Origin: Mayamaea pseudoterrestris
Lineage: Eukaryota
DNA: 64,000 bases
Direction of reading: 5' to 3'
NCBI GenBank assembly: GCA_027923505.1
Contig: BROI01000017.1
Location: 124,001-188,000 of the forward strand
Position 1 is the stretch's first letter. Every line of letters starts with the position of its first letter. This document shows positions 7,211 to 57,304 of the stretch, piece by piece. The position numbers were made by a program, and so were the translations under genes. The notes under the pieces were generated by a model. It ran no database searches. It had not been told where the DNA came from and was given only the letters and a program-made list of their open reading frames with translations.

Positions 7211-10200
7211 GGCTTGCTGTAGGGCGTATGATTGTCACGGCATCTGTGGGCTGAGACTGGTGACAAGTTGTCACCAAATACATTGCCATCCCCTGAGACA
7301 CCAGCCAAGCCTACCATCTTGTAGCGCAGCTTGAATATTGAAGTTGGCACCATTCTGGTGTATTTTGGGCACCTACAGGGCTTGCTGTAGGGGCGTTTGA
7401 ATGTCACAGCATCTGCGGGTTGAGACTGGTGACAAGTTGTCACCAAATACATTGCCATCCCCTGAGACACCAGCCAAGCCTACCATCTTGTAGCGCAGCT
7501 TGAATAATGATGTTGGCACCATTCTGGTGTATTTTAGGCACCTACAGGGTTTGCTGTAGGGCGTTTGAATGTCACGGCATCTGTTTGCTGAGACTGGTGA
7601 CAAGTTGTCACCAAATACATTGCCATCCCCTGAGACACCAGCCAAGCCTACCATCTTGTAGCACAGCTTGAATAATGAAGTTGGCACCAATCTGGTGTAT
7701 TTTGGGCACCTACAGGGCTTGCTGTAGGGGCGTTTGAATGTCACGGCATCTGCGTGCTGAGACTGGTGACAAGTTGTCACCAAATACATTGTTATCCCCT
7801 GAGACACCAGCCAAGCCTACCATCTTGTAGCGCAGCCTGAATAATGTAGTTGGCACCATTCTATTGTATTTTGGGCACCTACAGGGCTTGCTGTAGGGGG
7901 GTTTGAATATCATGGCATCTGCGGGCTGAGACTGGTGACAAGTTGTCACCAAATACATTGTTATCCCCTGAGACACCAGCCAAACCTACCATCTTGTAGC
8001 ACAGCCAGAATAATGCTGTTGGCACCATTCTGGTGTATTTTGGGCACCTACAGGGCTTGCTGTAGGGGCGTTTGATTGTCACGGCATCTGCGGTCTGAGA
8101 CTGGTGACAAGTTGTCACCAAATACATTGCCATCCCCTGAGACACCAGCCAAGCCTACCATCTTGTAGCGCAGCTGGAATAATGATGTTGGCACCATTCT
8201 GGTGTACTTTAGGCACCTACATGGCTTGCTGTAGGGGCGTTTGAATGTCACGGCATCTGCGGGTTGAGACTCAAGTCCCATCCCCTGAGACACAGCCAGC
8301 TGTAGCGCAGCTTGAAATGATGTTGGCACCATTCTGGTGATGGCACCCACCTACAAGTTGTCACCAAATACATTGCCATCCCCTGAGACACCAGCCAAGC
8401 CTACCATCTTGTAGCGCAGCCTGAATAATGATGTTGGCACCTTTCTGGTGTACTTTGGGCTACTACAGGGCTTGCTGTAGGGGCGTATGATTGTCACGGC
8501 ATCTGTTTGCTGAGACTGGTGACAAGTTGTCACCAAATACATTGCCATCCCATGAGACACCAGCCAAGCCTACCATCTTGTAGCGCAGCCTGAAAAATGA
8601 AGTTGGCACCATTCTGGTGTATTTTGGGCACCTACAGGGCATGCTGTAGGGGCGTTTGAATGTCACGGCATCTGTAGGCTGAGACTGGTGACAAGTTGTC
8701 ACCAAATACATTGCCATCCCCTGAGAAACCAGCCAAGCTGACCATCTTGTAGCGCAGCTGGAATAATGATGTTGGCACCATTCTGGTGTATTTTGGGCAC
8801 CTACAGGGCTTGCTGTAGGGGCGTTTGAATGTCACGGCATCTGCGGGTTGAGACTGGTGACAAGTTGTCACCAAATACATTGCCATCCCCTGAGACACCA
8901 GCCAAGCCTACCATCTTGTAGCGCAGCCTGAATAATGATGTTGGCACCATTCTGGTGTATTTTGGGCACCTACAGGGCTTGCTGTAGGGGCGTTTGAATG
9001 TCACGGCATCTGCGGGCTGAGACTGGTGACAAGTTGTCACCAAATACATTGCCATCCCCTGAGACACCAGCCAAGCCTACCATCTTGTAGCGCAGCCTGA
9101 ATAATGATGTTGGCACCATTCTGGTGTATTTTGGGCACCTACAGGGCTTGCTGTAGGGGCGTTTGAATGTCACGGCATCTGCGGGCTGAGACTGGTGACA
9201 AGTTGTCACCAAATACATTGCCATCCCCTGAGACACCAGCCAAGCCTACCATCTTGTAGCGCAGCCTGAATAATGATGTTGGCACCATTCTGGTGTATTT
9301 TGGGCACCTACAGGGCTTGCTGTAGGGCGTTTGAATGTCACGGCATCTGCGGGCTGAGACTGGTGACAAGTTGTCACCAAATACATTGCCATCCCCTGAG
9401 ACACCAGCCAAGCCTACCATCTTGTAGCGCAGCCTGAATAATGATGTTGGCACCATTCTGGTGTATTTTGGGCACCTACAGGGCTTGCTGTAGGGGCGTT
9501 TGAATGTCACGGCATCTGCGGGCTGAGACTGGTGACAAGTTGTCACCAAATACATTGCCATCCCCTGAGACACCAGCCAAGCCTACCATCTTGTAGCGCA
9601 GCCTGAATAATGAAGTTGGCACCATTCTGGTGTATTTTGGGCACCTACAGGGCTTGCTGTAGGGGCGTTTGAATGTCACGGCATCTGTGGGCTGAGACTG
9701 GTGACAAGTTGTCACCAAATACATTGCCATCCCCTGAGACACCAGCCAAGCCTACCATCTTGTAGCGCAGCCTGAATAATGATGTTGGCACCATTCTGGT
9801 GTATTTTGGGCACCTACAGGGCTTGCTGTAGGGGCGTTTGAATGTCACGGCATCTGCGGGCTGAGACTGGTGACAAGTTGTCACCAAATACATTGCCATC
9901 CCCTGAGACACCAGCCAAGCCTACCATCTTGTAGCGCAGCCTGAATAATGATGTTGGCACCATTCTGGTGTATTTTGGGCACCTACAGGGCTTGCTGTAG
10001 GGGCGTTTGAATGTCACGGCATCTGCAGGCTGAGACTGGTGACAAGTTGTCACCAAATACATTGCCATCCCCTGAGACACCAGCCAAGCCTACCATCTTG
10101 TAGCGCAGCCTGAATAATGATGTTGGCACCACATGGCATCCGCTATGACACACCCTACGCTGAATATGATGTTGGCACCATTCTGGTGTATTTTGGGCAC

Positions 10201-13200
10201 CTACAGGGCATGCTGTAGGGGCGTTTGAATGTCACGGCATCTGCAGGCTGAGACTGGTGACAAGTTGTCACCAAATACATTGCCATCCCCTGAGACACCA
10301 GCCAAGCCTACCATCTTGTAGCGCAGCCTGAATAATGATGTTGGCACCATTCTGGTGTATTTTGGGCACCTACAGGGCTTGCTGTAGGGGCGTTTGAATG
10401 TCACGGCATCTGCGGGCTGAGACTGGTGACAAGTTGTCACCAAATACATTGCCATCCCCTGAGACACCAGCCAAGCCTGCCATCTTGTAGCGCAGCCTGA
10501 ATAATGATGTTGGCACCATTCTGGTGTATGTTGGGTACCTACAGGGCATGTTGTAGGGGCGGTTGAATGTCTCGGCATGTGCGGGCTGAGACTGGTGACA
10601 AGTTGTCACCAAATACATTGCCATCCCCTGAGACACCAGCCAAGCCTACCATCTTGTAGCGCAGCCTGAATAATGATGTTGGCACCATTCTGGTGTATTT
10701 TGGGCACCTACAGGGCTTGCTGTAGGGGCATTTGAATGTCACGGCATCTGCAGGCTGAGACTGGTGACAAGTTGTCACCAAATACATTGCCATCCCCTGA
10801 GACACCATCCAAGCCTACCATCTTGTAGCGCAGCCTGAATAATGATGTTGGCACCATTCTGGTGTATTTTGGGCACCTACAGGGCTTGCTGTAGGGGCAT
10901 TTGAATGTCACGGCATCTGCGGGCTGAGACTGGTGACAAGTTGTCACCAAATACATTGCCATCCCCTGAGACACCAGCCAAGCCTACCATCTTGTAGCGC
11001 AGCCTGAATAATGATGTTGGCACCATTCTGGTGTATTTTGGGCACCTACAGGGCTTGCTGTAGGGGCGTTTGAATGTCACGGCATCTGCTGGCTGAGACT
11101 GGTGACAAGTTGTCACCAAATACATTGCCATCCCCTGAGACACCAGCCAAGCCTACCATCTTGTAGCGCAGCCTGAATAATGATGTTGGCACCATTCTGG
11201 TGTATTTTGGGCACCTACAGGGCTTGCTGTAGGGGCGTTTGAATGTCACGGCATCTGCGGGCTGAGACTGGTGACAAGTTGTCAGTTGTCACCAAATACA
11301 TTGCCATCCCCTGAGACACCAGCCAAGCCTGCCATCTTGTAGCGCAGCCTGAATAATGATTTTGGCACCATTCTGGTGTATTTTGGGCACCTACAGGGCT
11401 TGCTGTAGGGGCGTTTGAATGTCTCGGCATATGCGGGCTGAGACTGGTGACAAGTTGTCACCAAATACATTGCCATCCCCTGAGACAGCAGCCAAGCCTA
11501 CCATCTTGTAGCGCAGCCTGAAAAAAGATGTTGGCACCATTCTGGTGTATGTTGGGTACCTACAGGGCATGTTGTAGGGGCGTTTGAATGTCTCGGCATC
11601 TGTGGGCTGAGACTGGTGACAAGTTGTCACCAAATACATTGCCATCCCCTGAGACACCAGCCAAGCCTACCATCTTGTAGCGCAGCCTGAATAATGATGT
11701 TGGCACCATTCTGGTGTATTTTGGGCACCTACAGGGCTTGCTGTAGGGGCGTTTGAATGTCACGGCATCTGCGGACTGAGACTGGTGACAAGTTGTCACA
11801 AATACATTGCCATCCCCTGAGACAACAGCCAAGCCTACCATCTTGTAGCGCAGCCTGAATAATGATTTTGGCACCATTCTGGTGTATGTTGGGCACCTAC
11901 AGGTCTTGCTGTAGGGGCGTTTGAATGTCTCGGCATCTGCGGGCTGAGACTGGTGACAAGTTGTCACCAAATACATTGCCATCCCCTGAGACACCAGCCA
12001 AGCCTGCCATCTTGTAGCGCAGCCTGAATAATGATGTTGGCACCATTCTGGTGTATTTTGGGCACCTACAGGGCTTGCTGTAGGGGCGTTTGAATGTCTC
12101 GGCATATGCGGGCTGAGACTGGTGACAAGTTGTCACCAAATACATTGCCATCCCCTGAGACACCAGCCAAGCCTACCATCTTGTAGCGCAGCCTGAATAA
12201 TGATGTTGGCACCATTCTGGTGTATGTTGGGCACCTACAGGGCTTGCTGTAGGGGCGTTTGAATGTCACGGCATCTGTGGGCTGAGACTGGTGACAAGTT
12301 GTCACCAAATACATTGCCATCCCCTGAGACACCAGCCAAGCCTACCATCTTGTAGCGCAGCCTGAATAATGATGTTGGCACCATTCTGGTGTAAATTGGG
12401 CACCTACAGGGCTTGCTGTAGGGGCATTTATATGTCACGGCCTCTGCGGGCTGAGACTGGTGACAAGTTGTCACCAAATACATTGCCATCCCCTGAGACA
12501 CCAGCCAAGCCTACCATCTTGTAGCGCAGCCTGAATAATGATGTTGGCACCATTCTGGTGTATTTTGGGCACCTACAGGGCTTGCTGTAGGGGCGTTTGA
12601 TTGTCACGGCATCTGCGGTGGACTCTGGTGACAAGTTGTCACCAAATACATTGCCATCCCCTGAGACACCAGCCAAGCCTACCATCTTGTAGCGCAGCCT
12701 GAATAATGATGTTGGCACCATTCTGGTGTATTTTGGGCACCTACAGGGCTTGCTGTAGGGGCATTTGAATGTCACGGCATCTGCGGGCTGAGACTGGTGA
12801 CAAGTTGTCACCAAATACATTGCCATCCCCTGAGACACCAGCCAAGCCTACCATCTTGTAGCGCAGCCTGAATAATGATGTTGGCACCATTCTGGTGTAT
12901 TTTGGGCACCTACAGGGCTTGCTGTAGGGGCGTTTGAATGTCACGGCATCTGCAGGCTGAGACTGGTGACAAGTTGTCACCAAATACATTGCCATCCCCT
13001 GAGACACCATTCAAGCCAACCATCTTGTAGCGCAGCCTGAATAAGGATGTTGGAACCATTCTGGTATTTTTGGGCACCTACAGGGCTTGCTGTAGGGGCA
13101 TTTGAATGTCACGGCATCTGCGGGCTGAGACTGGTGACAAGTTGTCACCAAATACATTGCCATCCCCTGAGACACCAGCCAAGCCTACCATCTTGTAGCG

Positions 13201-16200
13201 CAGCCTGAATAATGATGTTGGCACCATTCTGGTGTATTTAGGGCACCTACAGGGCTTGCTGTAGGGGCGTTTGAATGTCACGGCATCTGCGGGCTGAGAC
13301 TGGTGACAAGTTGTCACCAAATACATTGCCATCCCCTGAGACACCAGCCAAGCCTACCATCTTGTAGCGCAGCCTGAATAATGATGTTGGCACCATTCTG
13401 GTGTATTTTAGGCACCTACAGGGCTTGCTGTAGGGGCGTTTGAATGTCACGGCATCTGCGGGCTGAGACTGGTGACAAGTTGTCACCAAATACATTGCCA
13501 TCCCCTGAGACAGCAGCCAAGCCTACCATCTTGTAGCGCAGCCTGAAAAATGATGTTGGCACCATTCTGGTGTATGCTGGGCACCTACAGGGCTTGCTGA
13601 AGGGGTGTTTGAATGTCATGGCATCTGCGGGCTGAGACTGGTGACAAGTTGTCACCAAATACATTGCCATCCCCTGAGACACCAGCCAAGCCTACCATCT
13701 TGTAGCGCAGCTTGAACAATGATGTTGGCACTATCCTGGTGTATGTTGGGCACCTACCAGGCTTGCTGTAGGTGTGTCTGAATGTCATGGCATCTGAGGG
13801 CTGAGACTGGTGACAAGTTGTCACCAAATACATTGCCATCCCCTGAGACACCAGCCAAGCCTACCATCTTGTAGCGCAGCTTGAACAATGATGTTGGCAC
13901 CATTCTGGTGTAATTCGGGAACCTGCAGGGCCTGCTGTAGGGGGTTTGAATGTAACAGCATCTGCGGGCTGAGGCTGGTGACAAGTTGTCACCAAATACA
14001 TTGCTATCCCCTGAGACTCACGCCAAGCCTACCATCTTGTAGCGCAGCCTGAATAATGATGCTGGCACCATTATGGTGTATATTGGGCACCTACAGGGCT
14101 AGCTGTAGGGGCGTTTGAATGTCATGGCATCTGCGGGATGAGACTGGTGACAAGTTGTCACCAAATACATTGCCATCCCCTGAGACACCAGCCAAGCTTA
14201 CCATCTTGTAGCGCATCCTCAAAAATGATGTTGGCACCGTTCAAGTGTATTTTGGGCACCTACCCGGCTTGCTGTAGGGGCGTTTGAATGTCATGGCATC
14301 TGCAGGCTGAGACTGGTGACAAGTTGTCACCAAATACATTGCCATCCCCTGAGACACCAGCCAAGCCTACCATCTTGTAGCGCAGCCTGAACAATGATGT
14401 TGGCACCATTCTGGTGTATTTTGGGCACCTACAGGGCTTGCTGTAGGGGCGTTTGAATGTCACGGCATCTGCGGGCTGAGACTGGTGACAAGTTGTCACC
14501 AAATACATTGCCATCCTCTGAGACACCAGCCAAGCCTACCATCTTGTAGCGCATCTTGGACAATGATGTTGGCACCATTCTGGTTTAATTTGGGCATCTA
14601 TAGGGCCTGCTGTAGGTGTGTCTGAATGTCATGGCAGCTGCGGGCTGAGACTGGTGACAAGTTGTCACCAAATACATTGCCATCCCCTGAGACACCAGCC
14701 AAGCCTACCATCTTGTAGCGCAGCCTGAATAATGATGTTGGCACCATTCTGGTGTATTTTGGGCACCTACAGGGCTTGCTGTAGGGGGGTTTGAATGTCA
14801 CGGCATCTGCAGGCTGAGACTGGTGACAAGTTGTCACCAAATACATTGCCATCCCCTGAGACACCAGCCAAGCCTACCATCTTGTAGCGCAGCCTGAATA
14901 ATGATGTTGGCACCATTCTGGTGTATTTTGGGCACCTACCGGGCTTGCTAGAGGGGCGTCTGAATGTCACGGCACCTGCGGGCTGAGACTGGTGACAAGT
15001 TGTCACCAAATACATTGCCATCCCCTGAGACACCAGCCAAGCTTACCATCTTGTAGCGCAGCTTGAATAATGATGTTGGCACCATTCTGGTGTATTTTGG
15101 GCACCTACAGGGCTTGCTGTAGGGGCGTTTGAATGTCACGGCATCTGCGGGCTGAGACTGGTGACAAGTTGTCACCAAATACATTGCCATCCCCTGAGAC
15201 ACCAGCCAAGCCTACCATATTGTAGCGCAGCCTGAAAAATGATGTTGGCACCATTCTGGTGTATTTTGGGCACCTACAGGGCTTGCTGTAGGGGCGTTTG
15301 AATGTCACGGCATCTGCGGGCTGAGACTGGTGACAAGTTGTCACCAAATACATTGCCATCCCCTGAGACACCAGCCAAGCCTACCATCTTGTAGCGCAGC
15401 CTGAATAATGATGTTGGCACCATTCTGGTCTATTTTGGGCACCTACAGGGCTTGCTGTAGGGGCGTTTGAATGTCACGGCATCTGCGGGCTGAGACTGGT
15501 GACAAGTTGTCACCAAATACATTGCCATCCCCTGAGACACCAGCCAAGACTACCATCTTGTAGCGCAGCCTAAAAAATGATGTTGGCACCATTCTGGTGT
15601 AATTTGGGCACCTATCGGGCTTGCTGTAGGGCGTTTGAATGTCACGGCATCTGCGGGCTGACACTAGTGACAAGTTGTCACTAAATACATTGCCATCCCC
15701 TGAGACACCAGCCAAGCCTACCATCTTGTAGCGCAGCCTGAATAATGATGTTGGCACCATTCTGGTGTATTTGGGCACCTACAGGGCTTGCTGTAGGGGC
15801 GTTTGAATGTCACGGCATCTGCGGGCTGAGACTGGTGACAAGTTGTCACCAAATACATTGCCATCCCCTGAGACACCAGCCAAGCCTACCATCTTGTAGC
15901 GCAGCCTGAATAATGATGTTGGCACCATTCTGGTGTATGTTGGGCACCTACAGGGCTTGCTGTTGGGGCGTATGAATGTCACGGCATCTGCGGGCTGAGA
16001 CTGGTGACAAGGTGTCACCAAATACATTGCCATCCCCTGAGACACCAGCCAAACCTACCATCTTGTAGCGCAGCCTGAATAAGGATGTTGGCACCATTTG
16101 AGTGTATTTTGGGCACCTACAGGGCTTGCTGTAGGGGCGTTTGAATGTCACGGCATCTGCGGGCTGAGACTGGTGACAAGTTGTCACCAAATACATTGCC

Positions 16201-16788
16201 ATCCCCTGAGACACCAGCCAAGCCTACCATCTTGTAGCGCAGCCTGAATAATGATGTTGGCACCATTCTGGTGTATTTTGGGCACCTACAGGGCTTGCTG
16301 TAGGGGCGTTTGAATGTCACGGCATCTGCGGGCTGAGACTGGTGACAAGTTGTCACCAAATACATTGCCATCCCCTGAGACACCAGCCAAGCCTACCATC
16401 TTGTAACGCAGCATGCAAAATGATGTTGGCACCATTCTGGTGTAGTTTGGGCACCTACAGGGCTTGCTGTAGGGGCGTTTGAATGTCACGGCATCTGCAG
16501 GCTGAGACTGGTGACAAGTTGTCACCAAATACATTGCCATCCCCTGAGACACCAGCCAAGCCTACCATCTTGTAGCGCAGCTTGAATAATGATGTTGGCA
16601 CCATTCTGGTGTAATTTGGGCACCTACAGGGCTTGCTGTAGGTGTGTCTGAATGTCACGGCATCTGCAGGCTGAGACTGGTGACAAGTTGTCACCAAATA
16701 CATTGCCATCCCCTGAGACACCAGCCAAGCCTACCATCTTGTAGCGCAGCCTGAATAATGATGTTGGCACCATTCTGGTGTCATTTGG
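7211..16788. repeat. Main 169-bp satellite (family A), left arm, about 57 head-to-tail monomers
   Basis: Consensus gggcacctacagggcttgctgtaggggcgtttgaatgtcacggcatctgcgggctgagactggtgacaagttgtcaccaaatacattgccatcccctgagacaccagccaagcctaccatcttgtagcgcagcctgaataatgatgttggcaccattctggtgtatttt (169 nt). ORF-track hits also recur every 169 bp. Confidence 0.98.
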
Positions 16789-17117
16789 TGACACGATAAT
16801 ATCAGACGAACCTTTATTCCAGCGACTACAATGGACTCGGAGCGATCAACCTCTTCGTCCAGCGTAAAGCAAACAAACAAACTCAATTGCTAGAATAGTG
16901 GATGTTACTCGCTACTCTACTCGTGCGCTTCTTTCTCGTTCTCACTGGGTTCACGGTCGAGGTTCACGCCTCGATCGTCAGCGATTTCACTCATGTATGT
17001 GAGGATTCGGTCACAAGTGTGACTCAACCCTGCACAGGATTAAATGCATACAAAACACAGGTAGCTAACCGTCTTGTCATAAGACGCAGGTCAACTCAAC
17101 TCAATAATATTGTGTCA
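16789..17117 (-). repeat. 3' LTR (329 bp)
   Basis: TGACACGATAAT...AATATTGTGTCA (TG..CA ends with an imperfect terminal inverted repeat). Only two substitutions seen relative to 21672-22000. Confidence 0.96.
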
Positions 17118-17127
17118 TCCCCCTTGA
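17118..17127 (-). other. Polypurine tract (plus-strand primer)
   Basis: Minus strand reads TCAAGGGGGA directly abutting the 3' LTR. Confidence 0.8.
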
Positions 17128-17128
17128 T

Positions 17129-18440
17129 CTAGGCTTGTGACAACGATCGGTTTGCCGTATCACCCTTCCAGAAAAGAATCGGAATGATCAGGGGTCGGAA
17201 CGTGGCATGCGGCAAGAACTTGGTAAGAACGTCGGCGACGTTCTGCTTGCCGAAGATGTGCTCAAAGTACAGAACATTGCTTGCAATGGCCTCGCGAACT
17301 CGGTGGTAGGCGAGCGCATTGTGTCGCTTAGAAAGTGTGGAGTGCGGGATCGTTGACGACTTCTTGACACTTTCGTTGTCGCCGAACATCCAGGCTGGTC
17401 CACTCAAAGGAACTCCCAACATGCGTAGGGAGTATCGGAAATCCATAATCTGTTCCGTCGCGGTCTTGGCGACGACGAACTCGGATCCGTACGTTGCAGT
17501 CTCGACAGTATTCTGACGCTTGCAGAACCATTCGACGGGCGTCTGGTTCAGGAAATGCAGGACTCCCATTGCGGAACGTCCAGTAGTGTAATCATGGTAC
17601 AGGTTCGCGTCCATAAAGGTAGTTAGTTGCACAGGCTTGCCCTTCGGGATCGGCATGTTCCACGGAAGCTCTTCGCTTGAGTTGCCGTAGACCGATTGCA
17701 ACCAATCATACTTGGTAGGTTCCCCGTGATCGACGATCTTCGTCCGGAAACGAATCGCCGCATCAGGGTACTCAGCTAGGTAACCGCAGACTCGCTTGGC
17801 TCGGTCCAGGTGTCCACGGCGCGGGGCGCAGCGGAATCGGCCAAGTGTCATTACGGCACAATGAATGTCTAGTCGACATAGGGTCACTGCCCACTGGAGG
17901 GCACCGATAAGAGACTGGTACTGTTGAATGCCACGGGCATCCAGCTCTTCGGTAAGGTCAAGTTCGGGGTGGTCCCCCAGTCGTAAAGAATCTTGCCGTT
18001 CGCAAAGGTCGGCTAGTTCGTTGTAGGTAATAAGCTCGTCGACGTCGCCGTCGCCGAGACTCAATCGAAACTTGATAATCTTGTGGTTGGCTTCATCGCG
18101 ATCGTTTAGTTGTTCAATAACCTTGTAACGTCGCGTGGAGCCGTCTTCCTCGTCAAGAAGGACAGTGCGTCCCATCAGTTCAGCCGGAGTAAAGGACGGC
18201 ATGGGTCCGTTGGGATCCAGACCGGCTAACTCGGCAGCGCTTTCCAACGTGAATGCGTCTTCATCCACGGTTCCCCCAGAATCAGGCGCTGGGGTCGGTG
18301 TAAGGTCATGTTCAAACACCGGACCGACTAGGTCATACTCATCGTCAAAATCGTTGACGGTTTCGACTTGGACTCTCCGCGGCCGCGTCGAAGACAGGTT
18401 CCGCGAACAATGGTCGTTCGGACTCGGGTTCAGGGGCGCC
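17129..18440 (-). pseudogene. Copia pol remnant: post-integrase linker joined by an in-frame deletion (near 17980) to the RT C-terminus and an intact RNase H
   Basis: YQSLIGALQWAVTLCRLDI, FMDANLYHD..TGRS, KRQNTVETATYGSEF, FGDNESV and NVADVLTK are present. The RT catalytic core (YVDD) is absent. Confidence 0.9.
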
Positions 18441-49108: not shown

Positions 49109-49628
49109 TTATTCAACATAGTGCACTTGCTCCTTGGTCTCTTCCCAATCGCTCGACAAGCTCTGGAGCTTGAGAGCTAGCTGATCGACTTTGATCGAAT
49201 GATGCCATTCTTCCTCCGTCGCATCTGCTCCTTCCTCGGCAACTTTATCAGCTTCTGCATCAGCTTCCGGAGGAAGTTGTCGTATCTGTTTCTCGATGGG
49301 AATTTCATGTATTGTATCAAGAGCGCATGCTGTTCCCAATCCGCCATGTAACGGACCGGCATCTTGTGCTTTGATTCCAGAGTCAATCGTGTCCGTACTT
49401 GCCGCAGAGGATTTACAATTACAACCTTCACACTTGTTAGACTGGTGAAACCAGAAACGAATAGTGATAAGGAAAGATAAGCATTTCTCTTACTTAACGA
49501 ACGCCGCCCTCCTCTCGCGAAAGCTGAAATGAAAAAAATATGAGCGACCATCTTCGTACCTTTTCGCCTTCATTTGCGACGGAGTAATTCTTGTCGACGG
49601 GAACAGCTTTACTTGCTTGACAACCCAT
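49109..49628 (-). CDS. Hypothetical 133-aa protein with an N-terminal MGC acylation motif; exons 49628-49560 and 49441-49109
   Basis: MGCQASKAVPVDKNYSVANEGEK joins in phase 0 across a GTACGA...CACCAG intron to SNKCEGCNCK...EQVHYVE*. Exon lengths are 69 and 333 nt. Confidence 0.65.
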
Positions 49629-49878
49629 CGTTTCAGTATTAGTTGGCTACAACTGCTCGCACTGGTCCTGGCGGTTGCAAACAGTGCGATGCACATCGCG
49701 TCGCTCGTTCCACCGTCATCTTCTTCATCCGTCGGTCACACTCGACGTCATCAATTGTCGCACCGGTTAAATTGCGACATGGCTCAGAACCCAAGATCCG
49801 CTGAATGCGGCGGCACAATGGAGATTGTAAATCGCCGGTCTGCCGTTGTCTGCTTCCCTTTACATTCACATATCAATC

Positions 49879-50472
49879 ATGGCATCCATTAGTCGCTTTG
49901 CGGAAAAGGCCTTTAGCGCTTCCTACTACAAGACGCAGTGGCAAAACATTTTGACGCGCTCGTACGATTACTACCACCCGCTCTTTCGTCAGGGAAGGTA
50001 CGCCGACTGCTCGCTTGCCTGTCACTATGTCTGACGATCACTGCGGCTGTATTTCACAAAAGTACTTGATGCAATTTGAAATTGATATGATAAATTGTTG
50101 CCTCAGGATTTCGGTCCTTGCGAAATGGTTTTCATAGAGGCGCTAGTCAGCGAACGAATTGGAAGTCGACTCACCCTCGATGTTTCTCTTAATTTCACAC
50201 AGCGCCACGCCACTTTGGCACATGATGATGGCCGTATCGGCAATCATGTACACGACGAGCTACCTGTCTCGCGATCGTAAGTTCATTGGAATATGAGATT
50301 TGGCGATATTTCTGCGTGATTAGCGCGTGTGTTGAACATGATACATGATGCTGACTGCTACGTACCTTTCTCGTTGTAATATACAGTCAGGGCAATGCAG
50401 CACAAGCATGAAGTTGAAAAGAAAGTCCTTCATGATTACTATGAACAGCATGGAGGCGCTCCCCATCATTAA
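49879..50472 (+). CDS. Probable mitochondrial ATP synthase subunit f (ATP17-like), 92 aa; exons 49879-49997, 50203-50276 and 50387-50472
   Basis: Two canonical introns give MASISRF...YHPLFRQGSATPLWHMMMAVSAIMYTTSYLSRDLRAMQHKHE...QHGGAPHH*. The S..PLWH motif, one TM helix and His-rich tail resemble fungal and plant subunit f. Confidence 0.65.
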
Positions 50473-51147
50473 ATGGGTGCGTCGTGAGCACAGCAAGCAG
50501 CAAGCAAGCGAAGGTCGTTGCTGTTTCGCTTAGAAGGTAGGTAACAAACTGATAAGGTCTGGAACTACTTCTATAGCTCTATTATTATCATTACGCAAAA
50601 GAAGACGTCGATATATAAACGATCTTTTATCATCATGACATAGCCTGCGCTTAATCACATCCGAGCATGTCCGGGTTTACCAAGTGCTATTCCCACACAT
50701 TTTAGTCCAATAGCAAAACTAAATATCGGGCTGCTTCCTTTTCCGACACACGGTTACTGTTCATACAACCTGCCCGTCTGTCGTCGCACTAGAGCCACAT
50801 AGCAAGGACATCAAGGCAGTCCGTTGAAGACACAAAACGGATGATGTTTGATGGTGTCTTAACGGTACTAAACAGCCGGTGCGACACATTCACGACCGAA
50901 AAACTTCCGACTGCTTTTTCATTTATTACCTCGACCAGGTTTCACGTTTCGTGGCAATATCAAGGCTCACCTCTAAGCTAAGCGTTGCAACAACTCTCGG
51001 CTGTTTTAGCTAAAAAAATCTACGGACTTGCTCCGTGTTCTGAGCAAAAGAGGTGGATTTGAAGTTGCTGGTTGCGAAGTTCTTGTTCACGTTTCGCGTT
51101 GGCATTTTGCACTTTTGCACCTACGACTGCCAAGAGAACTTTTTCGC

Positions 51148-54100
51148 ATGGCACGAAGAACCAAAAAAATTCAATCCATGATATTGACAGTTCTAGTTGC
51201 TTCCCGTCGAAACGTTCGAGCGTTTCGGGCATCTTCCTCTTTACTTGTTCGACCGATTGTCAGAGACCATCGTTGGCAGCATGCTCTTGCTTCTTCGGCA
51301 CTGACAAGAAGCAAATTATTGCGCACTAAAACATTCTCATCTTTGGCTGTCTCTGATCTATCTGTTGTCGATGACATTGAAGGAGTAGCTCCGCCTCTTT
51401 TCCAAGTTCATTCCAAATTTGAACCAACTGGCGATCAACCATATGCCATTGAACAGCTTTCGCAGCAACTGCAGGACGGCCAGAAATTCAACGTACTAAA
51501 GGGCGCCACAGGTACTGGCAAGACGTTTGTCATGTCCCACATTATTGCCCGGCACGGCAAACCAACCCTCGTGTTGGTGCACAATAAAACGTTGGCCGCT
51601 CAATTGGCGCGCGAGCTTCGATCGTTCTTTCCCACTCACGCCGTGGAACTCTTCATTAGTGCCTTTAAAACGTATCGACCAGAGTTTTACAAGGAAACAA
51701 CCGGAACGTATTGCGCCAAGAAGAGTACGACGGACGCTGACATTGAGGCCTTGAGACACATTGCCACGCGATCGCTCGTGACGCGCAAGGATGTGGTAGT
51801 CGTGGCCAGTGTTAGTTGCATTTTTGGATTGGGCTTGCCGAGTGATTATTTGGAAGCTAGTACGCATTTGAAAGTCAATCAAGTGCTCGATCATGAATTT
51901 ATTGACGATTTGGAACGAATGTTATATCAAGACGTCAAGGACGAACACGACAAATTTGCCCGAGGGTCGTATGAATGGCGTGAAACGATGGACGACAGCG
52001 GGCGGAAAGAGTTTATATACACATGTTGGCCTCCCCAGGAAGGGTTTCCCATGCGTGTCGAGCTGCAGCAAGTTGGGGCAAAGACGTTCAAAGTGACGGC
52101 TTTGTACCAGGGTGACAATTCTGGAATGGAACCTGTGCGCGAATTAACGATATTTCCAGCACGACACTACGTCGTTCCTGACCACAAGCTGCAGGAAGCA
52201 ATGTCGAGAATCGAAGAGGAACTGCGGGAGCGAGTTGACGAGCTCATGTTGGATGAGAAGGTGGATCAGAGAGAGACGGCAGCGAGGTTACAGAAACGGA
52301 CTTGGAATGATCTCATGATGATGCAGGAGCGAGGCTTTTGCAAGGGCATGGAAAATTATAGCCGTCATTTAGCAGGACGCGCAGCAGGTGAGCCACCGGG
52401 AACCTTGATGGACTACATGGGAAAGGAGTGGCTGTTGATTGTTGATGAAAGTCACGTCACAGTGCCGCAGCTTCAAACCATGTATCGAGGGGATCAGTCG
52501 CGAAAGGATGCATTAATCAAACATGGATACCGACTCCCGTCGGCACGCGACAATCGACCATTAACCGACCGAGAGTTTTGGAGCGGCGTGAATCAAACAA
52601 TATTCGTGTCAGCAACTCCATCGAAACGCGAATTATTGTTGTCGGAGACACCACCAGTGGAAATGCAGATTCGACCAACCTACGTTCGCGACCCGGCAAT
52701 TCACGTTCGGAGCCCTGAAGGCCAGCTCGATGATTTGCTGAACGAAATTAGGTCACGTGCATTGGTCAATGAACGCACGCTTGCGATGGTACTCACCAAA
52801 AAGGATGCCGAAGATTTGGCATCGTACTTGGAAGAGAACGACGTGAAAACGACTTACATTCATTCAGGGCTTGGTACACAGGAGCGGTCGTCGGCCTTGA
52901 AAGCTTTGCAGACAGGTGAGATCGACTGTCTTGTCGGAGTCAATTTGCTCCGCGAAGGACTCGACATTCCACAATGCTCGTTGGTGGCCGTTTTCAACGC
53001 TGATGCCGACGGAATGTTTCGCAGTCAGACATCACTTTTGCAGATTATTGGACGAGCTGCTCGAAATACCAGTGGCACAGCAATTTTTTACGCCAAGAGG
53101 GTGACCGAGAATATGCGCAAATGCATTGAAGAGACAGCCACAAGGCGTGCTCGTCAACTGGCGTACGTCGAGGCGAATGATGTGCAGATGGTTTCTTCGG
53201 TCGGATCATCTATTCAGTCGCCTTTTGATCTCCTCCGCGACAAGATTGATGAAGAACTTGCCTCCGGTGACCAGACTATTGCAGGATCACGCACACTACT
53301 TGGTTCGGGCAGCCCGAGTGGGCCTAACTTATCTGAAAAACACACTGCGATATCAGTCAGTGACAAGTCGAACTTGGAGACGGACCACATCCCAAATTTC
53401 CCAGGTATTTATTACTGGAAAGATCCTGGTGGCCAAATCTTATACATTGGAAAGGCCAAGAGCCTGCGGAGCCGCATCTTGTCGTACCTTACCTCAAGCG
53501 CAAATCGCAGTCACAGAATAAATACAATGTTAGGAAAAGCAAGTTCGATTGAATTTGAAATTACCCCCTCGGAGCGAGACGCACTTGTCCTTGAATCGAA
53601 GCTTATTAAACACCACCAGCCGCCATACAACGTACTGCTGAAAGACGACCATCATTATCCCTACATTTGCGCGAGAGTCGGTGATAAACTACCAGCTTTT
53701 ACGGCAGCGTCGTACAAGCAAGAAACTAACCAATCTCGTCGACACTATCGATATTTTGGACCATACACCAGCTATCAGGAAATTAACAGTATTCTGCAGG
53801 CTATTGAAGAGAAGTATGATTTGCGAGCACACTCCTTTTTAGCACGCCATGGCGGGGGATCACAAGATGAGTACAATGCCTTGTTTCAGCGAGCCTTACA
53901 AGAAATATTTGTTGACGGTTTGGACGAAGACCTTCAGCAGAGGCGGTCAGAGTATGAAGAAGCTAGCCACTTATTTGAGTCGCCTTTAAATACCTGCAGA
54001 GATGTAGTCGTGGCAGTGCCCCTTGGCGACGACGATCAATCCGCCGTGGTCCAAGTTGTGCAGCTTCGAAAGGGAATGGTGGCGCGACGCTTCTCGTATA

Positions 54101-55065
54101 CCTGTCAACTGCCATCTGGATTCGTCTCGCACGAGGACTTTGGAGACGTCATACACGATGTATTAGAGAAACTACACTATCGTTCAGGACAAGAGTCACC
54201 TGAAGGTTTCTCTTTCTTTCCGGATGAAATACTGCTATCCCACTCGCTAGCCGACATGGCAGCCCTACAATCTGCAATCGACATGGCTCGAAAAGATTTG
54301 GAGCCGTTGCGTAAGAAGCGTGTCGTCATCAAGACGCCCGCATCACGTGGCGAGCGAAAGGTCATCGATGCGCGAGCAATTGAATTTGCCATGAGTAATG
54401 CCCAGCAATCCGCACGCGATGTCCAACGAAAGTTAAAGGGAGGAGTGGCAGACTTTACTTTAGACAAATCTGCCGAAGAGCTTGCGACAATGCTCTCTCT
54501 CGAGGACATCCCTAGAGTAATCGAGTGCTACGATGTAAGCCACACGCAAGGGGATTTTCCTGTTGCAAGCCGGGTTGTTTTTGTAGATGGGAAACCGGCA
54601 CCACAGTATTACAGAACCTTTAACATAAGATCCGTCGTGGGTGTTGACGATTATGCGAGCATACAGGAGGCTGTATACCGACGCTTTCGACGATTCTGGA
54701 CATGCGCCGGTAACGATGAAAAGGTTGATGCGTCATGGGACGTGCCAGATCTTATCATAATCGATGGTGGTGTTGGGCAGCTATCGGCTGCTATAAAGGG
54801 AATGGCGCAGGCAAACGTTTTACCAGGGAATGCGACGCATGTTCAATTTGCAACGAGCGCCGCTCCACACTATGCGACGGTGCCTATTGCCGCTTTGGCG
54901 AAGGAGCATGAACAGCTCTACGTTCCGGGAGAAAAATTGTTTGTGAATCAGTCACCCGACTCTCCTGCCATGCTACTGCTCCGAAGTTTACGCGATGAAA
55001 GCCATCGTTTTGCATTGAAAGGACATCGCAGGAGACGTTCCATAACGAAAGCGTATCGCTTGTAA
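51148..55065 (+). CDS. UvrB-UvrC fusion protein (SF2 helicase + GIY-YIG nuclease + RNase H-like nuclease) with a putative organelle presequence
   Basis: One intron-free frame. UvrB (about 51400-53185): FEPTGDQP, GATGTGKT, HNKTLAAQL, VASVSCIFGLG, GMENYSRHL, IVDESH, RLPSARDNRPL, VSATP, GVNLLREGLDIP, QIIGRAARN. UvrC (about 53389-55065): PGIYYWK..LYIGKAKSLRSR, ALVLESKLIK..PPYN, YFGPY, IECYDVSH, DDYA, IIIDGGVGQL, RDESHRFA. The first ATGs are at 51148 and 51178; the ORF-track start at 51028 is not an ATG. Confidence 0.95.
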   Translation: MARRTKKIQSMILTVLVASRRNVRAFRASSSLLVRPIVRDHRWQHALASSALTRSKLLRTKTFSSLAVSDLSVVDDIEGVAPPLFQVHSKFEPTGDQPYAIEQLSQQLQDGQKFNVLKGATGTGKTFVMSHIIARHGKPTLVLVHNKTLAAQLARELRSFFPTHAVELFISAFKTYRPEFYKETTGTYCAKKSTTDADIEALRHIATRSLVTRKDVVVVASVSCIFGLGLPSDYLEASTHLKVNQVLDHEFIDDLERMLYQDVKDEHDKFARGSYEWRETMDDSGRKEFIYTCWPPQEGFPMRVELQQVGAKTFKVTALYQGDNSGMEPVRELTIFPARHYVVPDHKLQEAMSRIEEELRERVDELMLDEKVDQRETAARLQKRTWNDLMMMQERGFCKGMENYSRHLAGRAAGEPPGTLMDYMGKEWLLIVDESHVTVPQLQTMYRGDQSRKDALIKHGYRLPSARDNRPLTDREFWSGVNQTIFVSATPSKRELLLSETPPVEMQIRPTYVRDPAIHVRSPEGQLDDLLNEIRSRALVNERTLAMVLTKKDAEDLASYLEENDVKTTYIHSGLGTQERSSALKALQTGEIDCLVGVNLLREGLDIPQCSLVAVFNADADGMFRSQTSLLQIIGRAARNTSGTAIFYAKRVTENMRKCIEETATRRARQLAYVEANDVQMVSSVGSSIQSPFDLLRDKIDEELASGDQTIAGSRTLLGSGSPSGPNLSEKHTAISVSDKSNLETDHIPNFPGIYYWKDPGGQILYIGKAKSLRSRILSYLTSSANRSHRINTMLGKASSIEFEITPSERDALVLESKLIKHHQPPYNVLLKDDHHYPYICARVGDKLPAFTAASYKQETNQSRRHYRYFGPYTSYQEINSILQAIEEKYDLRAHSFLARHGGGSQDEYNALFQRALQEIFVDGLDEDLQQRRSEYEEASHLFESPLNTCRDVVVAVPLGDDDQSAVVQVVQLRKGMVARRFSYTCQLPSGFVSHEDFGDVIHDVLEKLHYRSGQESPEGFSFFPDEILLSHSLADMAALQSAIDMARKDLEPLRKKRVVIKTPASRGERKVIDARAIEFAMSNAQQSARDVQRKLKGGVADFTLDKSAEELATMLSLEDIPRVIECYDVSHTQGDFPVASRVVFVDGKPAPQYYRTFNIRSVVGVDDYASIQEAVYRRFRRFWTCAGNDEKVDASWDVPDLIIIDGGVGQLSAAIKGMAQANVLPGNATHVQFATSAAPHYATVPIAALAKEHEQLYVPGEKLFVNQSPDSPAMLLLRSLRDESHRFALKGHRRRRSITKAYRL

Positions 55066-55227
55066 AATAATCATATAGAAAATAGATAGAGATATATACA
55101 TTGTATGGCAATTATTGCAGTATATCACTAGCATGATATTCACCGATGTTCGTCACCGATCCATGTCGGATCCAGCAATGCCAATAATCGCGGCCACGGG
55201 TTGAACATATCATCCAACGATGGTATC

Positions 55228-56796
55228 TCAGCACAGCATCCATAGTGCAAACAAAAGGGACGCCAAACCTGTCATGGGAGCAAATCTTCGTGAACTATTT
55301 GATCGATCCAACACTGATGCAGTCGGCGCAGATGTGGACGACGTTGCTGATTCCTTTTGAGTCGGTGAAATGGTTGCGCCCGCCCCGCAATCAATGACAC
55401 ACTCTGTTGTATCTTGAAACGAGCAGGAGACGAACGATTCGACGTCCGATTGACAAGTTCCACAAGAGCAGGTATCAATGCCGGAGCATACAGCATCGCT
55501 GAGCTCCTTGCAATCGACGAACGAGGACGGAAAGGATGCAGCGACGCATGCGTCGCATGAGCTAGCTTCATCGAGACTCAGATCTGAATCAAAGCATTTT
55601 CGCAGATTCTCGCGAGCGTCGTCACAGGTCTTGGTGTCGGTGACTGGTTGTTGCGTGGGCGCTCCAATCTCGTTGGCGCAATCCAAGTGACAGCTATTTG
55701 TACTGACAAAGGCGCAGTTTAGCAAGTCTTCAACGGCCTGACCGCACGGTTCGCAGCCGCAAGTAGAAAGAGCAGGACAAAGGTCGGTTTGAAACACGGA
55801 ACAATCCGTTTCCTGTGGACCAGGAATGGTACCTGCAATGCAGGCATCGCAAGAAAGTGAATCACTGGAATGTAGATTGTCAGAGTAACACTTTTGTAAA
55901 GCTGCTTGCACACTGTCACAGTCTGTGATTGTTGAAGGGGACGACGTCGCAGTGCTCGGTGCGTCTACAGAATTGGTTGGCTGGGGCGAGTGCGAGGAAG
56001 TTGTCGTACTCGGAGCATCCGTCACCGTCGAAGTAGTTGGGGCACCGGTTTTAAACAAGTCACATGCCAATGTACATCCAATGGACTCCTCAAAGGCGCA
56101 ATTGAGTATTGTCTGTACATTCGTTCGACAAGGACCGCATGGACACTCAGTAATGGCTGTGCAGACGCTGGACTCAACGTCGTTGCAGGAAGCACTGGGC
56201 GAGGGAATGGCGTCGGCGACGCAGGCATTGCAGGTCTCCGCTTGCGTCTCATTCAAGTTAGCAGCAAAGCAGGTTTGTAAGTCATCTTGAGCATTGTTAC
56301 ATTGCGTGTTTGTCATGTTTTCAGGACCAGATGCAGTGATTGTGGGAGCAGCCGTTGTCATGAAGGCGACGGAGGGTGTCATGGTTGCGAATTCGCAGCT
56401 GATGCCGCATCCAAAAATCTCCTGCATGCCGCAGTCCATGAGCGCTTCCAGTGAACTTTTGCAGGCATCTCCGCACTTGCAGTCAGAGTCAATAGCCGTG
56501 CATACGTTGGAGCTGAGAGAATCACAACTCTCCGTTGGGGCGACGAGGATTGCTCGCGCCATGCAAAAGTTGCAGACCCCCAGCTCGTCACTGGACAGCT
56601 CATTAGAGGCGCATGACTCAAACGCGAGTTGCAAGTCGTCGCAGTCAGTATTTGGTAAAAGACTTGTCGAGTTTTGGGCGGCAACTGGTTGAATGAATGC
56701 TGCTACTAGGAGCATGAGGCAAGGACCGAGCAACCGCACTGGTGCGTGTGGCTGCACCGCTCGTACGGCGCCATTGTTTGCTCGCTCCCGCCGCAT
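55228..56796 (-). CDS. Secreted or cell-surface protein with four 12-Cys repeat domains and a possible GPI signal
   Basis: Signal peptide (...LLVAAFIQPVAA|Q), four repeats of about 82 aa, T/S/P-rich linkers and a hydrophobic C-terminus. Confidence 0.8.
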   Translation of the reverse strand: MRRERANNGAVRAVQPHAPVRLLGPCLMLLVAAFIQPVAAQNSTSLLPNTDCDDLQLAFESCASNELSSDELGVCNFCMARAILVAPTESCDSLSSNVCTAIDSDCKCGDACKSSLEALMDCGMQEIFGCGISCEFATMTPSVAFMTTAAPTITASGPENMTNTQCNNAQDDLQTCFAANLNETQAETCNACVADAIPSPSASCNDVESSVCTAITECPCGPCRTNVQTILNCAFEESIGCTLACDLFKTGAPTTSTVTDAPSTTTSSHSPQPTNSVDAPSTATSSPSTITDCDSVQAALQKCYSDNLHSSDSLSCDACIAGTIPGPQETDCSVFQTDLCPALSTCGCEPCGQAVEDLLNCAFVSTNSCHLDCANEIGAPTQQPVTDTKTCDDARENLRKCFDSDLSLDEASSCDACVAASFPSSFVDCKELSDAVCSGIDTCSCGTCQSDVESFVSCSFQDTTECVIDCGAGATISPTQKESATSSTSAPTASVLDRSNSSRRFAPMTGLASLLFALWMLC

Positions 56797-57304
56797 ATCG
56801 ATTGCAACTAGCTTATTTAATCAAGTGCTTGTCTTAGCTGCTTGGGGCTAGTGATCAATTACTACATGTAACATCCGTCTGCTTACATGAATCGGTTGAC
56901 GATGCTGCTTGTCGTCGGATGCTCGAGCAATGATGTCATGTGAGTAACGGAACGACAAATTTTTCTGGTACAAATTTCACGTAGAATCTACGTGAGGTTC
57001 TTAAGGTCATTCGTGTCCAATCATCGTGAATAGTAACGAGGCATATATAGTGATGACTCTGATTGACGTTTCGATTCGGATCGAAAATTTGATTGCCACC
57101 ATGGACGAAAGATACGGCGGCCAATTCGTCGACATGACGAGCGCCGGTAGCAGCGGTCGACTAAATATGGATCAAGGAACCAGCTTTAGTGCGTGACGCT
57201 CAGGAGGGAAAGGTTACAAGATATTTGACTGTAGAGTAGTGTGCGTCGTCATTCGTCATCCCAGTCAGCCATCCGATTCCGATTACCGATACCTGAATAA
57301 TTCT

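Follow-up and report, generated by a model that had tools for sequence, protein, structure and literature searches.

The stretch analysed here comprises 64,000 nucleotides of the diatom Mayamaea pseudoterrestris (contig BROI01000017.1, positions 124,001 to 188,000 of the forward strand); it is called the window in what follows and is numbered from its first letter. On its + strand, at 51148..55065, lies a complete and intronless coding sequence of 1305 codons plus stop, in which the DNA-repair proteins UvrB and UvrC are joined in a single chain. In bacteria these are separate proteins which act after UvrA, while eukaryotic nuclei use the unrelated XP (xeroderma pigmentosum) pathway. The open reading frame (ORF) extends from 51028 to 55065, that is, 1345 residues when counted from a TTG, and the start codon is taken to be either the ATG at 51148, from which 1305 residues are read uninterruptedly down to the stop at 55065, or a second ATG at 51178, which gives 1295 residues (MILTVLV...) and lines up with the starts of several orthologues. 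The 1305-residue product matches residues 35-1339 of the NCBI protein MPSEU_000776200 of the same diatom with 100% identity, where it is labelled 'hypothetical protein'. The gene is nuclear, since its neighbours are eukaryotic and some of them have spliced introns: the neighbouring ORFs encode an RPE65-type carotenoid oxygenase, a thiamin pyrophosphokinase, a DEAD-box helicase with a GUCT domain, a PhoD-like phosphatase and a dephospho-CoA kinase, and GT..AG joints are spliced in a neighbouring gene. The GC (guanine plus cytosine) content is even across the region around the fusion gene and matches that of the surrounding window. A first-pass annotation of this DNA had proposed one uninterrupted frame joining UvrB to UvrC and a nuclear location, and on both points it was borne out.

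The chain opens with an N-terminal extension of 84 residues (51148..51399, + strand), where MARRTKKIQS is followed by the hydrophobic MILTVLVA and by SRRNVRA↓FRASSS (the arrow marking a putative cleavage site), and then by a stretch which is rich in S, R, L and T and has few acidic residues, so that the earlier description of an organelle-type leader stands. The UvrB moiety occupies residues 85-697 (51400..53238, +) and holds the Walker A motif GATGTGKT, the VDESH motif, both conserved across an alignment of 23 fused homologues, and the helicase domains 1a, 1b and 3. Pfam recognizes ResIII at 91-167, Helicase_C at 530-640 and UvrB PF12344 at 647-678, the NCBIfam UvrB family TIGR00631 matches residues 85-680 (E 1.7e-211; profile positions 2-582 of 658), and residues 85-692 align with a solved UvrB, PDB 9gy7_E (E 6e-160). 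The profiles TIGR00631 and NF003673 are matched only up to position 582-598 of 653-658. Within this moiety, the beta-hairpin region (residues 170-190; 51655..51717, +) reads SAFKTYRPEFY in Mayamaea and SYYxxYxPE in most fused homologues and in bacteria, while domain 2 (residues 252-338; 51901..52161, +) combines a predicted fold (predicted local distance difference test, pLDDT, about 85-94) with a diverged sequence. What had been announced as a full UvrB helicase core is therefore confirmed as regards the ATPase and helicase motifs and the alignment with the solved structure, but not as regards completeness, since the C-terminal UVR domain (domain 4) is lacking and the sequence of domain 2 has diverged strongly.

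A Ser/Gly-rich variable tether joins the two moieties. It measures 38 residues (704-741; 53257..53370, +) and not the 70 or so estimated at first, and residues 701-733 are predicted to be disordered, these being the only ones with pLDDT <50 in an AlphaFold2 model (128-row alignment) which is otherwise confident in both halves (mean pLDDT 87.6). The ESM Atlas returned only bacterial UvrB clusters (0.86) and was uninformative. Beyond the tether lie the GIY-YIG nuclease domain of UvrC (residues 745-837; 53380..53658, +), a helical middle region (residues 838-960; 53659..54027, +), from which the Cys-rich block is deleted and where EYEEASHLFE is the remnant of the UVR hairpin, and the RNase H-like modules PF22920 and PF08459 (54028..55014, +). 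In bacterial UvrC the GIY-YIG domain makes the 3' incision and the RNase H-like domain the 5' incision. Pfam detects GIY-YIG PF01541 at 752-828 (E 4e-9), UvrC_RNaseH PF22920 at 961-1088 and UvrC_RNaseH_dom PF08459 at 1114-1289 (E 8e-40); the UvrC family TIGR00194 is matched with E 9.4e-86 and 288.7 bits, a marginal pass of its cut-off of 285.45. Both nuclease domains align with solved structures (1yd6 for GIY-YIG, 2nrr for RNase H-like) with their catalytic motifs in register. As had been claimed beforehand, these motifs are all retained: PGIYYW, LYIGKA, SLRSR, VLES, PPYN, ECYDVSH, DDY, IIDGG and DESH are each found in the translation, and the alignment of 23 fused homologues is invariant at G753, Y755, Y766, G768, R774, E816 and N828 of the GIY-YIG domain and at D1129, H1132, D1167, D1168, D1206, G1207, G1208 and H1286 of the RNase H-like domain. 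Just after IIDGGxGQ, a diatom-specific insertion of about 19 residues is also seen in the alignment (54750-54810, residues ~1225-1243), and is found neither in bacteria nor in Pycnococcus nor in the group formed by P0122 and P0084.

Four public runs (X1-X4), all belonging to one study, contain the stretch; the kind of run is not on record. The DNA-run X1 yields a contig of 6811 nt (49871-56681) with 0 differences from the window. X2 and X4 are taken as RNA, because the gene immediately before the fusion shows GT..AG joints in them (49995 to 50201 and 50276 to 50387) and because their contigs cover genes, not spacers. One X2 contig of 2540 nt, colinear with 52499-55038, reaches from the last part of UvrB across the tether and through almost the whole of UvrC, and one X4 contig (52907-53434) bridges the UvrB/UvrC junction, so that the region 53150-53420, singled out at the outset for an RNA-type check, is crossed colinearly in both runs by contigs which are RNA-like by inference. 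Moreover, MMETSP transcripts of other algae encode the same fusion. As for the beginning of the gene, the NCBI model adds 34 residues (MIGGFEVAG...; 51046-51147) by way of an implied upstream mini-exon. This extension was dropped, since it shows no conservation in the orthologues and an RNA-like X2 contig (51001-51369) crosses the implied acceptor site unspliced; it is probably 5' untranslated region annotated as coding.

The architecture is by no means peculiar to this diatom. UvrB-type and UvrC-type Pfam families occur together in 85 of the 120 best matches to the whole protein (our own count of the Pfam lists), and named sources of fused forms include Cyclotella cryptica, Cylindrotheca closterium, a Bacillariaceae metagenome-assembled genome, Epithemia clementina, Nitzschia sp. 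Nitz4 and Amphora coffeaeformis, together with one MMETSP transcript flagged as complete. More distant fused forms, with 34-41% identity, are a second MMETSP transcript and the protein XRB01906.1 ('exonuclease uvrABC') of Pycnococcus provasolii. Since the latter is a green alga, the fusion extends beyond the diatoms. In the red alga Cyanidium caldarium, UvrB (P0093) stands unfused, and no larger fusion, such as UvrA-UvrB-UvrC, was found in a search for proteins of more than 2284 residues, which is weak evidence. The single-chain UvrB-UvrC protein, as first annotated, is a genuine one; its architecture recurs in dozens of independent assemblies and transcriptomes, and the databases carry it under automatic names such as 'excinuclease ABC subunit B' or 'hypothetical protein'.

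As regards ancestry, the best named unfused relatives of the UvrC half are cyanobacterial, with some 33% identity (Nostocales, Sphaerospermopsis, Phormidium, Cyanothece, Acaryochloris); matches in Chloroflexi and Bacillota come next. When the UvrB half is scanned against a single genome for each prokaryote species, cyanobacteria again lead (47-49%; Leptolyngbyaceae, Nostoc, Spirulina) among the best 80 of at least 594 matches. Separate trees of the two halves, which the first-pass annotation had suggested, each recover a single fused clade grouping with cyanobacteria, the bacterial sequences of the UvrC trees coming from 30 genomes behind the loci of the UvrB scan. In the UvrB tree under LG+G4 (99 rows), support by the Shimodaira-Hasegawa-like approximate likelihood-ratio test (SH-aLRT) is 80 for the fused clade and 99 for its grouping with cyanobacteria, a side which also holds the unfused red alga and two mis-called rows; these are the wrong-frame ORFs L032_B and L056_B, with branch lengths of about 4, and both were omitted from the UvrB tree of 48 rows. 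The latter, built under LG+C20 with posterior mean site frequencies (PMSF), gives 99 and 100, respectively, for a side made up of 17 fused proteins, 5 cyanobacteria and the red alga. In the UvrC trees, where all non-cyanobacterial bacteria are split off, the corresponding values are 100 and 96 under LG+G4, and 100 and 98 under LG+C20 PMSF. The long-branched sequence fus_P0091 was omitted from both LG+C20 PMSF trees. The same four sub-groups, namely a diatom clade of 13 sequences, Pycnococcus with P0126, P0122 with P0084, and P0091 (on a long branch where included), are common to both half-trees, which argues for one fusion event, the product being later inherited or transferred as a unit. Taken together with their relatives, the two halves point to a derivation from the cyanobacterial uvrB and uvrC of the plastid ancestor.

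Joining the partners was accompanied by losses in both of them, as judged in alignments with proteins of cyanobacteria and other bacteria. Where Cyanidium and seven bacteria keep the C-terminal UVR domain 4 of UvrB, each of the 10 fused forms aligned has the tether instead; the window protein gives no PF02151 match. On the UvrC side, 7 bacteria retain the Cys-rich block, the UVR hairpin and the (HhH)2 tail, while each of the three has gone or survives only as a vestige in the 9 fused forms aligned with them. The diatom UvrC halves keep only a remnant of the first helix of the UVR hairpin, and the (HhH)2 tail is wholly missing, since the fused proteins end 10-30 residues past the last RNase H-like motif and the window protein 16 residues past PF08459. 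Profile searches agree with this picture: in Nostocales UvrC, Pfam places UVR at 216-249 and HhH at 571-623, and one bacterial UvrB likewise has a UVR match, whereas no UVR or HhH match is given by Pfam for the window protein or for Pycnococcus, and both families are outside the 25 commonest Pfam families of 23 fused proteins, a list whose rarest entry occurs in 2 of 23. The 16 diatom-clade sequences all have a tether of 31-43 residues, the other seven one of 64-106. The simplest reading of these sequences is that a covalent tether replaced the handshake between the two UVR domains, and that both interface domains then decayed. As a separate observation, the UvrC proteins of four bacterial loci (L105, L107, L108 and L109, from Omnitrophota, Saccharibacteria and Planctomycetota) are short, with open frames of 474-497 residues, and the UvrC profile matches them in two pieces, a hint that some bacterial lineages, too, have lost the middle region naturally.

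The destination of the protein was approached through the leaders of its homologues. Out of 64 homologues with the P.GDQP landmark, 42 had a Met start, more than 1100 residues and an extension of at least 35 residues; the window gene is counted among them twice, as P0001 and as its NCBI model. The rule applied to them, a simple one of our own and not a trained predictor, asks for a hydrophobic 8-mer with [ASGC][FWY] no more than 14 residues behind it. It is satisfied by 26 of these 42 N-termini, compared with a mean of 6.5 in shuffled leaders, and several leaders missed by the threshold show, by eye, the same succession of a hydrophobic stretch and small-x-small↓F/W/Y. Small residues at -3 and -1 mark the putative cleavage sites VRA↓F (window), VAS↓F, CVA↓F, ALA↓F, ASA↓F, SSA↓W and GHA↓W. 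A hydrophobic, signal-peptide-like stretch with an aromatic residue at +1 is the pattern of diatom plastid proteins, with its ASAFAP motif, and the leader is read as a bipartite plastid signal of this kind. The leader of Pycnococcus is Ser-rich, as in the transit peptides of primary plastids. The leader pattern and the cyanobacterial ancestry make the plastid the fairly likely destination, and the alternative 'plastid or mitochondrion' of the first-pass annotation can be narrowed to this extent.

Bringing these lines together, we consider it on balance probable that the locus is an intact, transcribed nuclear gene for a plastid-targeted, single-chain UvrB-UvrC enzyme, both halves of which came from the cyanobacterial genes of the plastid ancestor. 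Of this, the data show the intact gene with its conserved catalytic residues, the continuity of the transcript, the distribution, the ancestry and the lost modules, whereas localisation, activity and the way in which damage is first found, be it with a UvrA partner or without one, are predicted. A mechanism can be proposed from the bacterial families. The fused protein would be imported into the plastid stroma, where the UvrB moiety, by means of its ATPase and beta-hairpin, would clamp and verify a lesion in plastid DNA at the expense of ATP; the tethered GIY-YIG domain would then nick 3' of the lesion and the RNase H-like domain 5' of it, as bacterial UvrBC does, and a helicase, a polymerase and a ligase would complete the repair. 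The flexible tether of about 38 residues would stand in for the non-covalent UVR-UVR handshake which recruits UvrC to UvrB in bacteria, and both UVR domains, the (HhH)2 DNA-binding tail and the Cys-rich block might have become dispensable, and been lost, because the covalent tether replaces that handshake.

Nevertheless, several results weigh against this interpretation. The UvrB half falls below the NCBIfam equivalog cut-offs (704 against 750.1 bits for TIGR00631, 702.2 against 743 for NF003673), and the predicted template modelling score (pTM) of the AlphaFold2 model, 0.61, leaves the relative arrangement of the UvrB and UvrC halves undefined. The RNA nature of X2 and X4 is our own deduction, and contigs cannot prove a single transcript. 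The trees come from quick searches with SH-aLRT support only and with the root unknown, and the bacterial sample behind them is small, was picked by similarity to the query and contains only 5 cyanobacterial UvrB sequences. Two of the aromatic residues at the hairpin base are replaced in Mayamaea (AFKTY) and in its closest relative (SFKSY), compared with YYxxY; among the 23 aligned fused forms, 17 have YYxxY and four FYxxY, HYxxF or HFxxY, and the solved UvrBs read YYDYY at this aromatic cluster. Finally, domain 2, which in bacteria is the surface that binds UvrA and Mfd, is so strongly diverged that the canonical hand-over from UvrA may not operate. In the window protein its identity to the UvrB of cyanobacteria is 19.6%, the remainder of the core reaching 52.8%; over ten fused forms the values are 18-29% and 52-57%, a ratio of 0.32-0.52, compared with 0.69-0.89 in unfused UvrB (the red alga and four bacteria). 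The Pfam family UvrB_inter PF17757 is not detected in the window protein and is detected in 7 of 23 fused proteins.

The divergence of domain 2 and the loss of domain 4, a domain which in bacteria restrains the ATPase and DNA binding of UvrB until UvrA acts, may leave room for independence from UvrA. In its strongest form, this would make the fused protein a self-sufficient excision nuclease and the sole nucleotide-excision machinery of the plastid, the UvrB moiety being freed by both changes to load itself on damaged or stalled plastid DNA. We regard this extension as possible, though rather doubtful. If it were true, one polypeptide would do the work of three bacterial proteins, or of about thirty nuclear ones.

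A different reservation concerns the destination, since the same enzyme might be imported into the mitochondrion, or into both organelles, and not into the plastid alone. Dual targeting of organellar nucleic-acid enzymes is known in diatoms. The N-terminus of Mayamaea is rich in R, S, L and A, and none of its first 39 residues is acidic; the hydrophobic stretch is short, at 7-9 residues, and Arg residues immediately precede the putative cleavage site, an unusual feature in signal peptides, so that a mitochondrial or dual presequence could be present. Also, 16 of the 42 N-termini fail the plastid rule, and many of these gene models were made by metagenome gene callers. We nonetheless find such a destination unlikely, given that small-x-small↓F/W/Y follows the hydrophobic stretch four times as often as in shuffled leaders, that the affinity of both halves is cyanobacterial, not alphaproteobacterial, and that the orthologue of the green alga carries a leader of chloroplast type.

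Another reading is a change of task, the fusion having been recruited from lesion excision to some other transaction of plastid DNA. It might, for instance, cut specific structures without UvrA, or unwind DNA, at stalled forks, R-loops or recombination intermediates. The low identity of domain 2 and the scarcity of PF17757 would fit such a change, as would the loss of the auto-inhibitory UVR domain 4, the altered hairpin aromatics of Mayamaea and a UvrB score under the equivalog cut-off. Against it, the ATPase motifs and both nuclease active sites are invariant in the 23 homologues, which fits retained dual-incision chemistry, the YYxxY hairpin is kept in most diatom orthologues, and no result points to an alternative partner or substrate; recruitment therefore appears improbable. 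As for an artefact, be it bacterial contamination, mis-assembly of two genes or a decaying pseudogene, it is hardly conceivable and was rejected, since nothing was found in its favour (only the extra 34 N-terminal residues of the NCBI model look mis-modelled), and since the error-free 6811-nt contig, the eukaryotic and spliced flanking genes, the matching GC content, the 1305 open codons with all catalytic residues intact and the recurrence of the architecture elsewhere all speak against it.

Some further features of the window were recorded beside the fusion gene. The small upstream gene (49900-50500, +) has two GT..AG introns (49996-50200 and 50277-50386), removed in X2 and X4, and the contig depth over it is 86 and 43, as against about 5 over the UvrB-UvrC gene; close by, a CT..AC joint at about 49423-49560 points to an intron on the minus strand. 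Short contigs of the spacers at 49465-49900 and 56606-57003 show 16 differences each from the window, beside contigs that match perfectly, and would seem to come from another allele or haplotype, as in a diploid diatom. Downstream, the convergent neighbour at 55228-56796 (- strand) encodes 522 residues with no Pfam match and is covered by RNA-like contigs. With a hydrophobic, signal-like stretch at its N-terminus, a hydrophobic C-terminal tail and four Cys-rich modules of about 100 residues separated by Ser/Thr/Pro-rich spacers, its product looks like a secreted or glycosylphosphatidylinositol (GPI)-anchored cell-surface protein. Far upstream, the GC content is nearly constant (0.514-0.516) over the five consecutive 2-kb bins of 8001-18000, and differs there from the rest of the window.

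In the full-text literature searched, no description of a eukaryotic UvrB-UvrC fusion was found, and paywalled papers and supplementary tables may mention the gene. A 2006 survey of the GIY-YIG superfamily counts 318 members of the UvrC family, none of them eukaryotic (PMC1564403), and another paper mentions only a gene with a 'UvrB/uvrC motif' (PMC7705064). According to a 2020 review, nucleotide-excision repair seems to be absent from organelles, and flowering plants are without UvrA, UvrB and UvrC. What is described here is thus known chemistry in a conserved and apparently undescribed single-chain architecture of algae; the sequences were already public, and the novelty resides in recognising and interpreting their architecture. 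That the fusion is common to many algae suggests that their chloroplasts excise damaged DNA in the bacterial way, which the organelles of flowering plants are thought not to do, and a conserved chain with a predicted plastid address opens organellar excision repair to direct tests in tractable species, such as Phaeodactylum. For the study of protein evolution, the fusion amounts to a natural experiment, where two partners were fused, the domains by which they held each other vanished from both, and the length of the tether became fixed. Should the enzyme, in addition, prove to act independently of UvrA, no smaller machine for dual-incision repair would be known, and it would make a useful reagent.

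In comparison with known systems, the fusion is closest to bacterial, and in particular cyanobacterial, UvrB (TIGR00631) and UvrC (TIGR00194), with which its catalytic cores align end to end and whose active-site residues it keeps. It differs from them in being one chain and not two, in being nucleus-encoded, in its import leader and diverged domain 2, and in having neither the UVR domain of UvrB nor the Cys-rich block and (HhH)2 domain of UvrC, whose UVR hairpin is vestigial. The UvrB of Cyanidium caldarium resembles it in being a eukaryotic nuclear gene of cyanobacterial ancestry with an N-terminal extension, and adjoins the fused clade and the cyanobacteria; unlike the fusion, it stands alone, ends in a UVR-type C-terminus, is recognised by PF17757 (E 1e-24) and has a domain 2 ratio of 0.74. 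The Pycnococcus provasolii protein shares with that of Mayamaea the domain order, the four module losses and a place inside the fused clade in both half-trees, while it is only about 37% identical, has a tether of 66 residues and a domain 2 still detected by Pfam (E 1.8e-9), and bears a leader of the Ser-rich primary-plastid type where diatom leaders are of the signal-peptide type. Lastly, there is a parallel in Escherichia coli, where UvrB* is UvrB without its C-terminal domain 4, and where 'UvrBC' cuts pre-melted substrates without UvrA. Like UvrB*, the fused UvrB moiety is devoid of domain 4; nevertheless, UvrB* and 'UvrBC' are matters of laboratory truncation or of special substrates, whereas the truncation in the fusion, known from its sequence, is natural, conserved and coupled to an attached UvrC.

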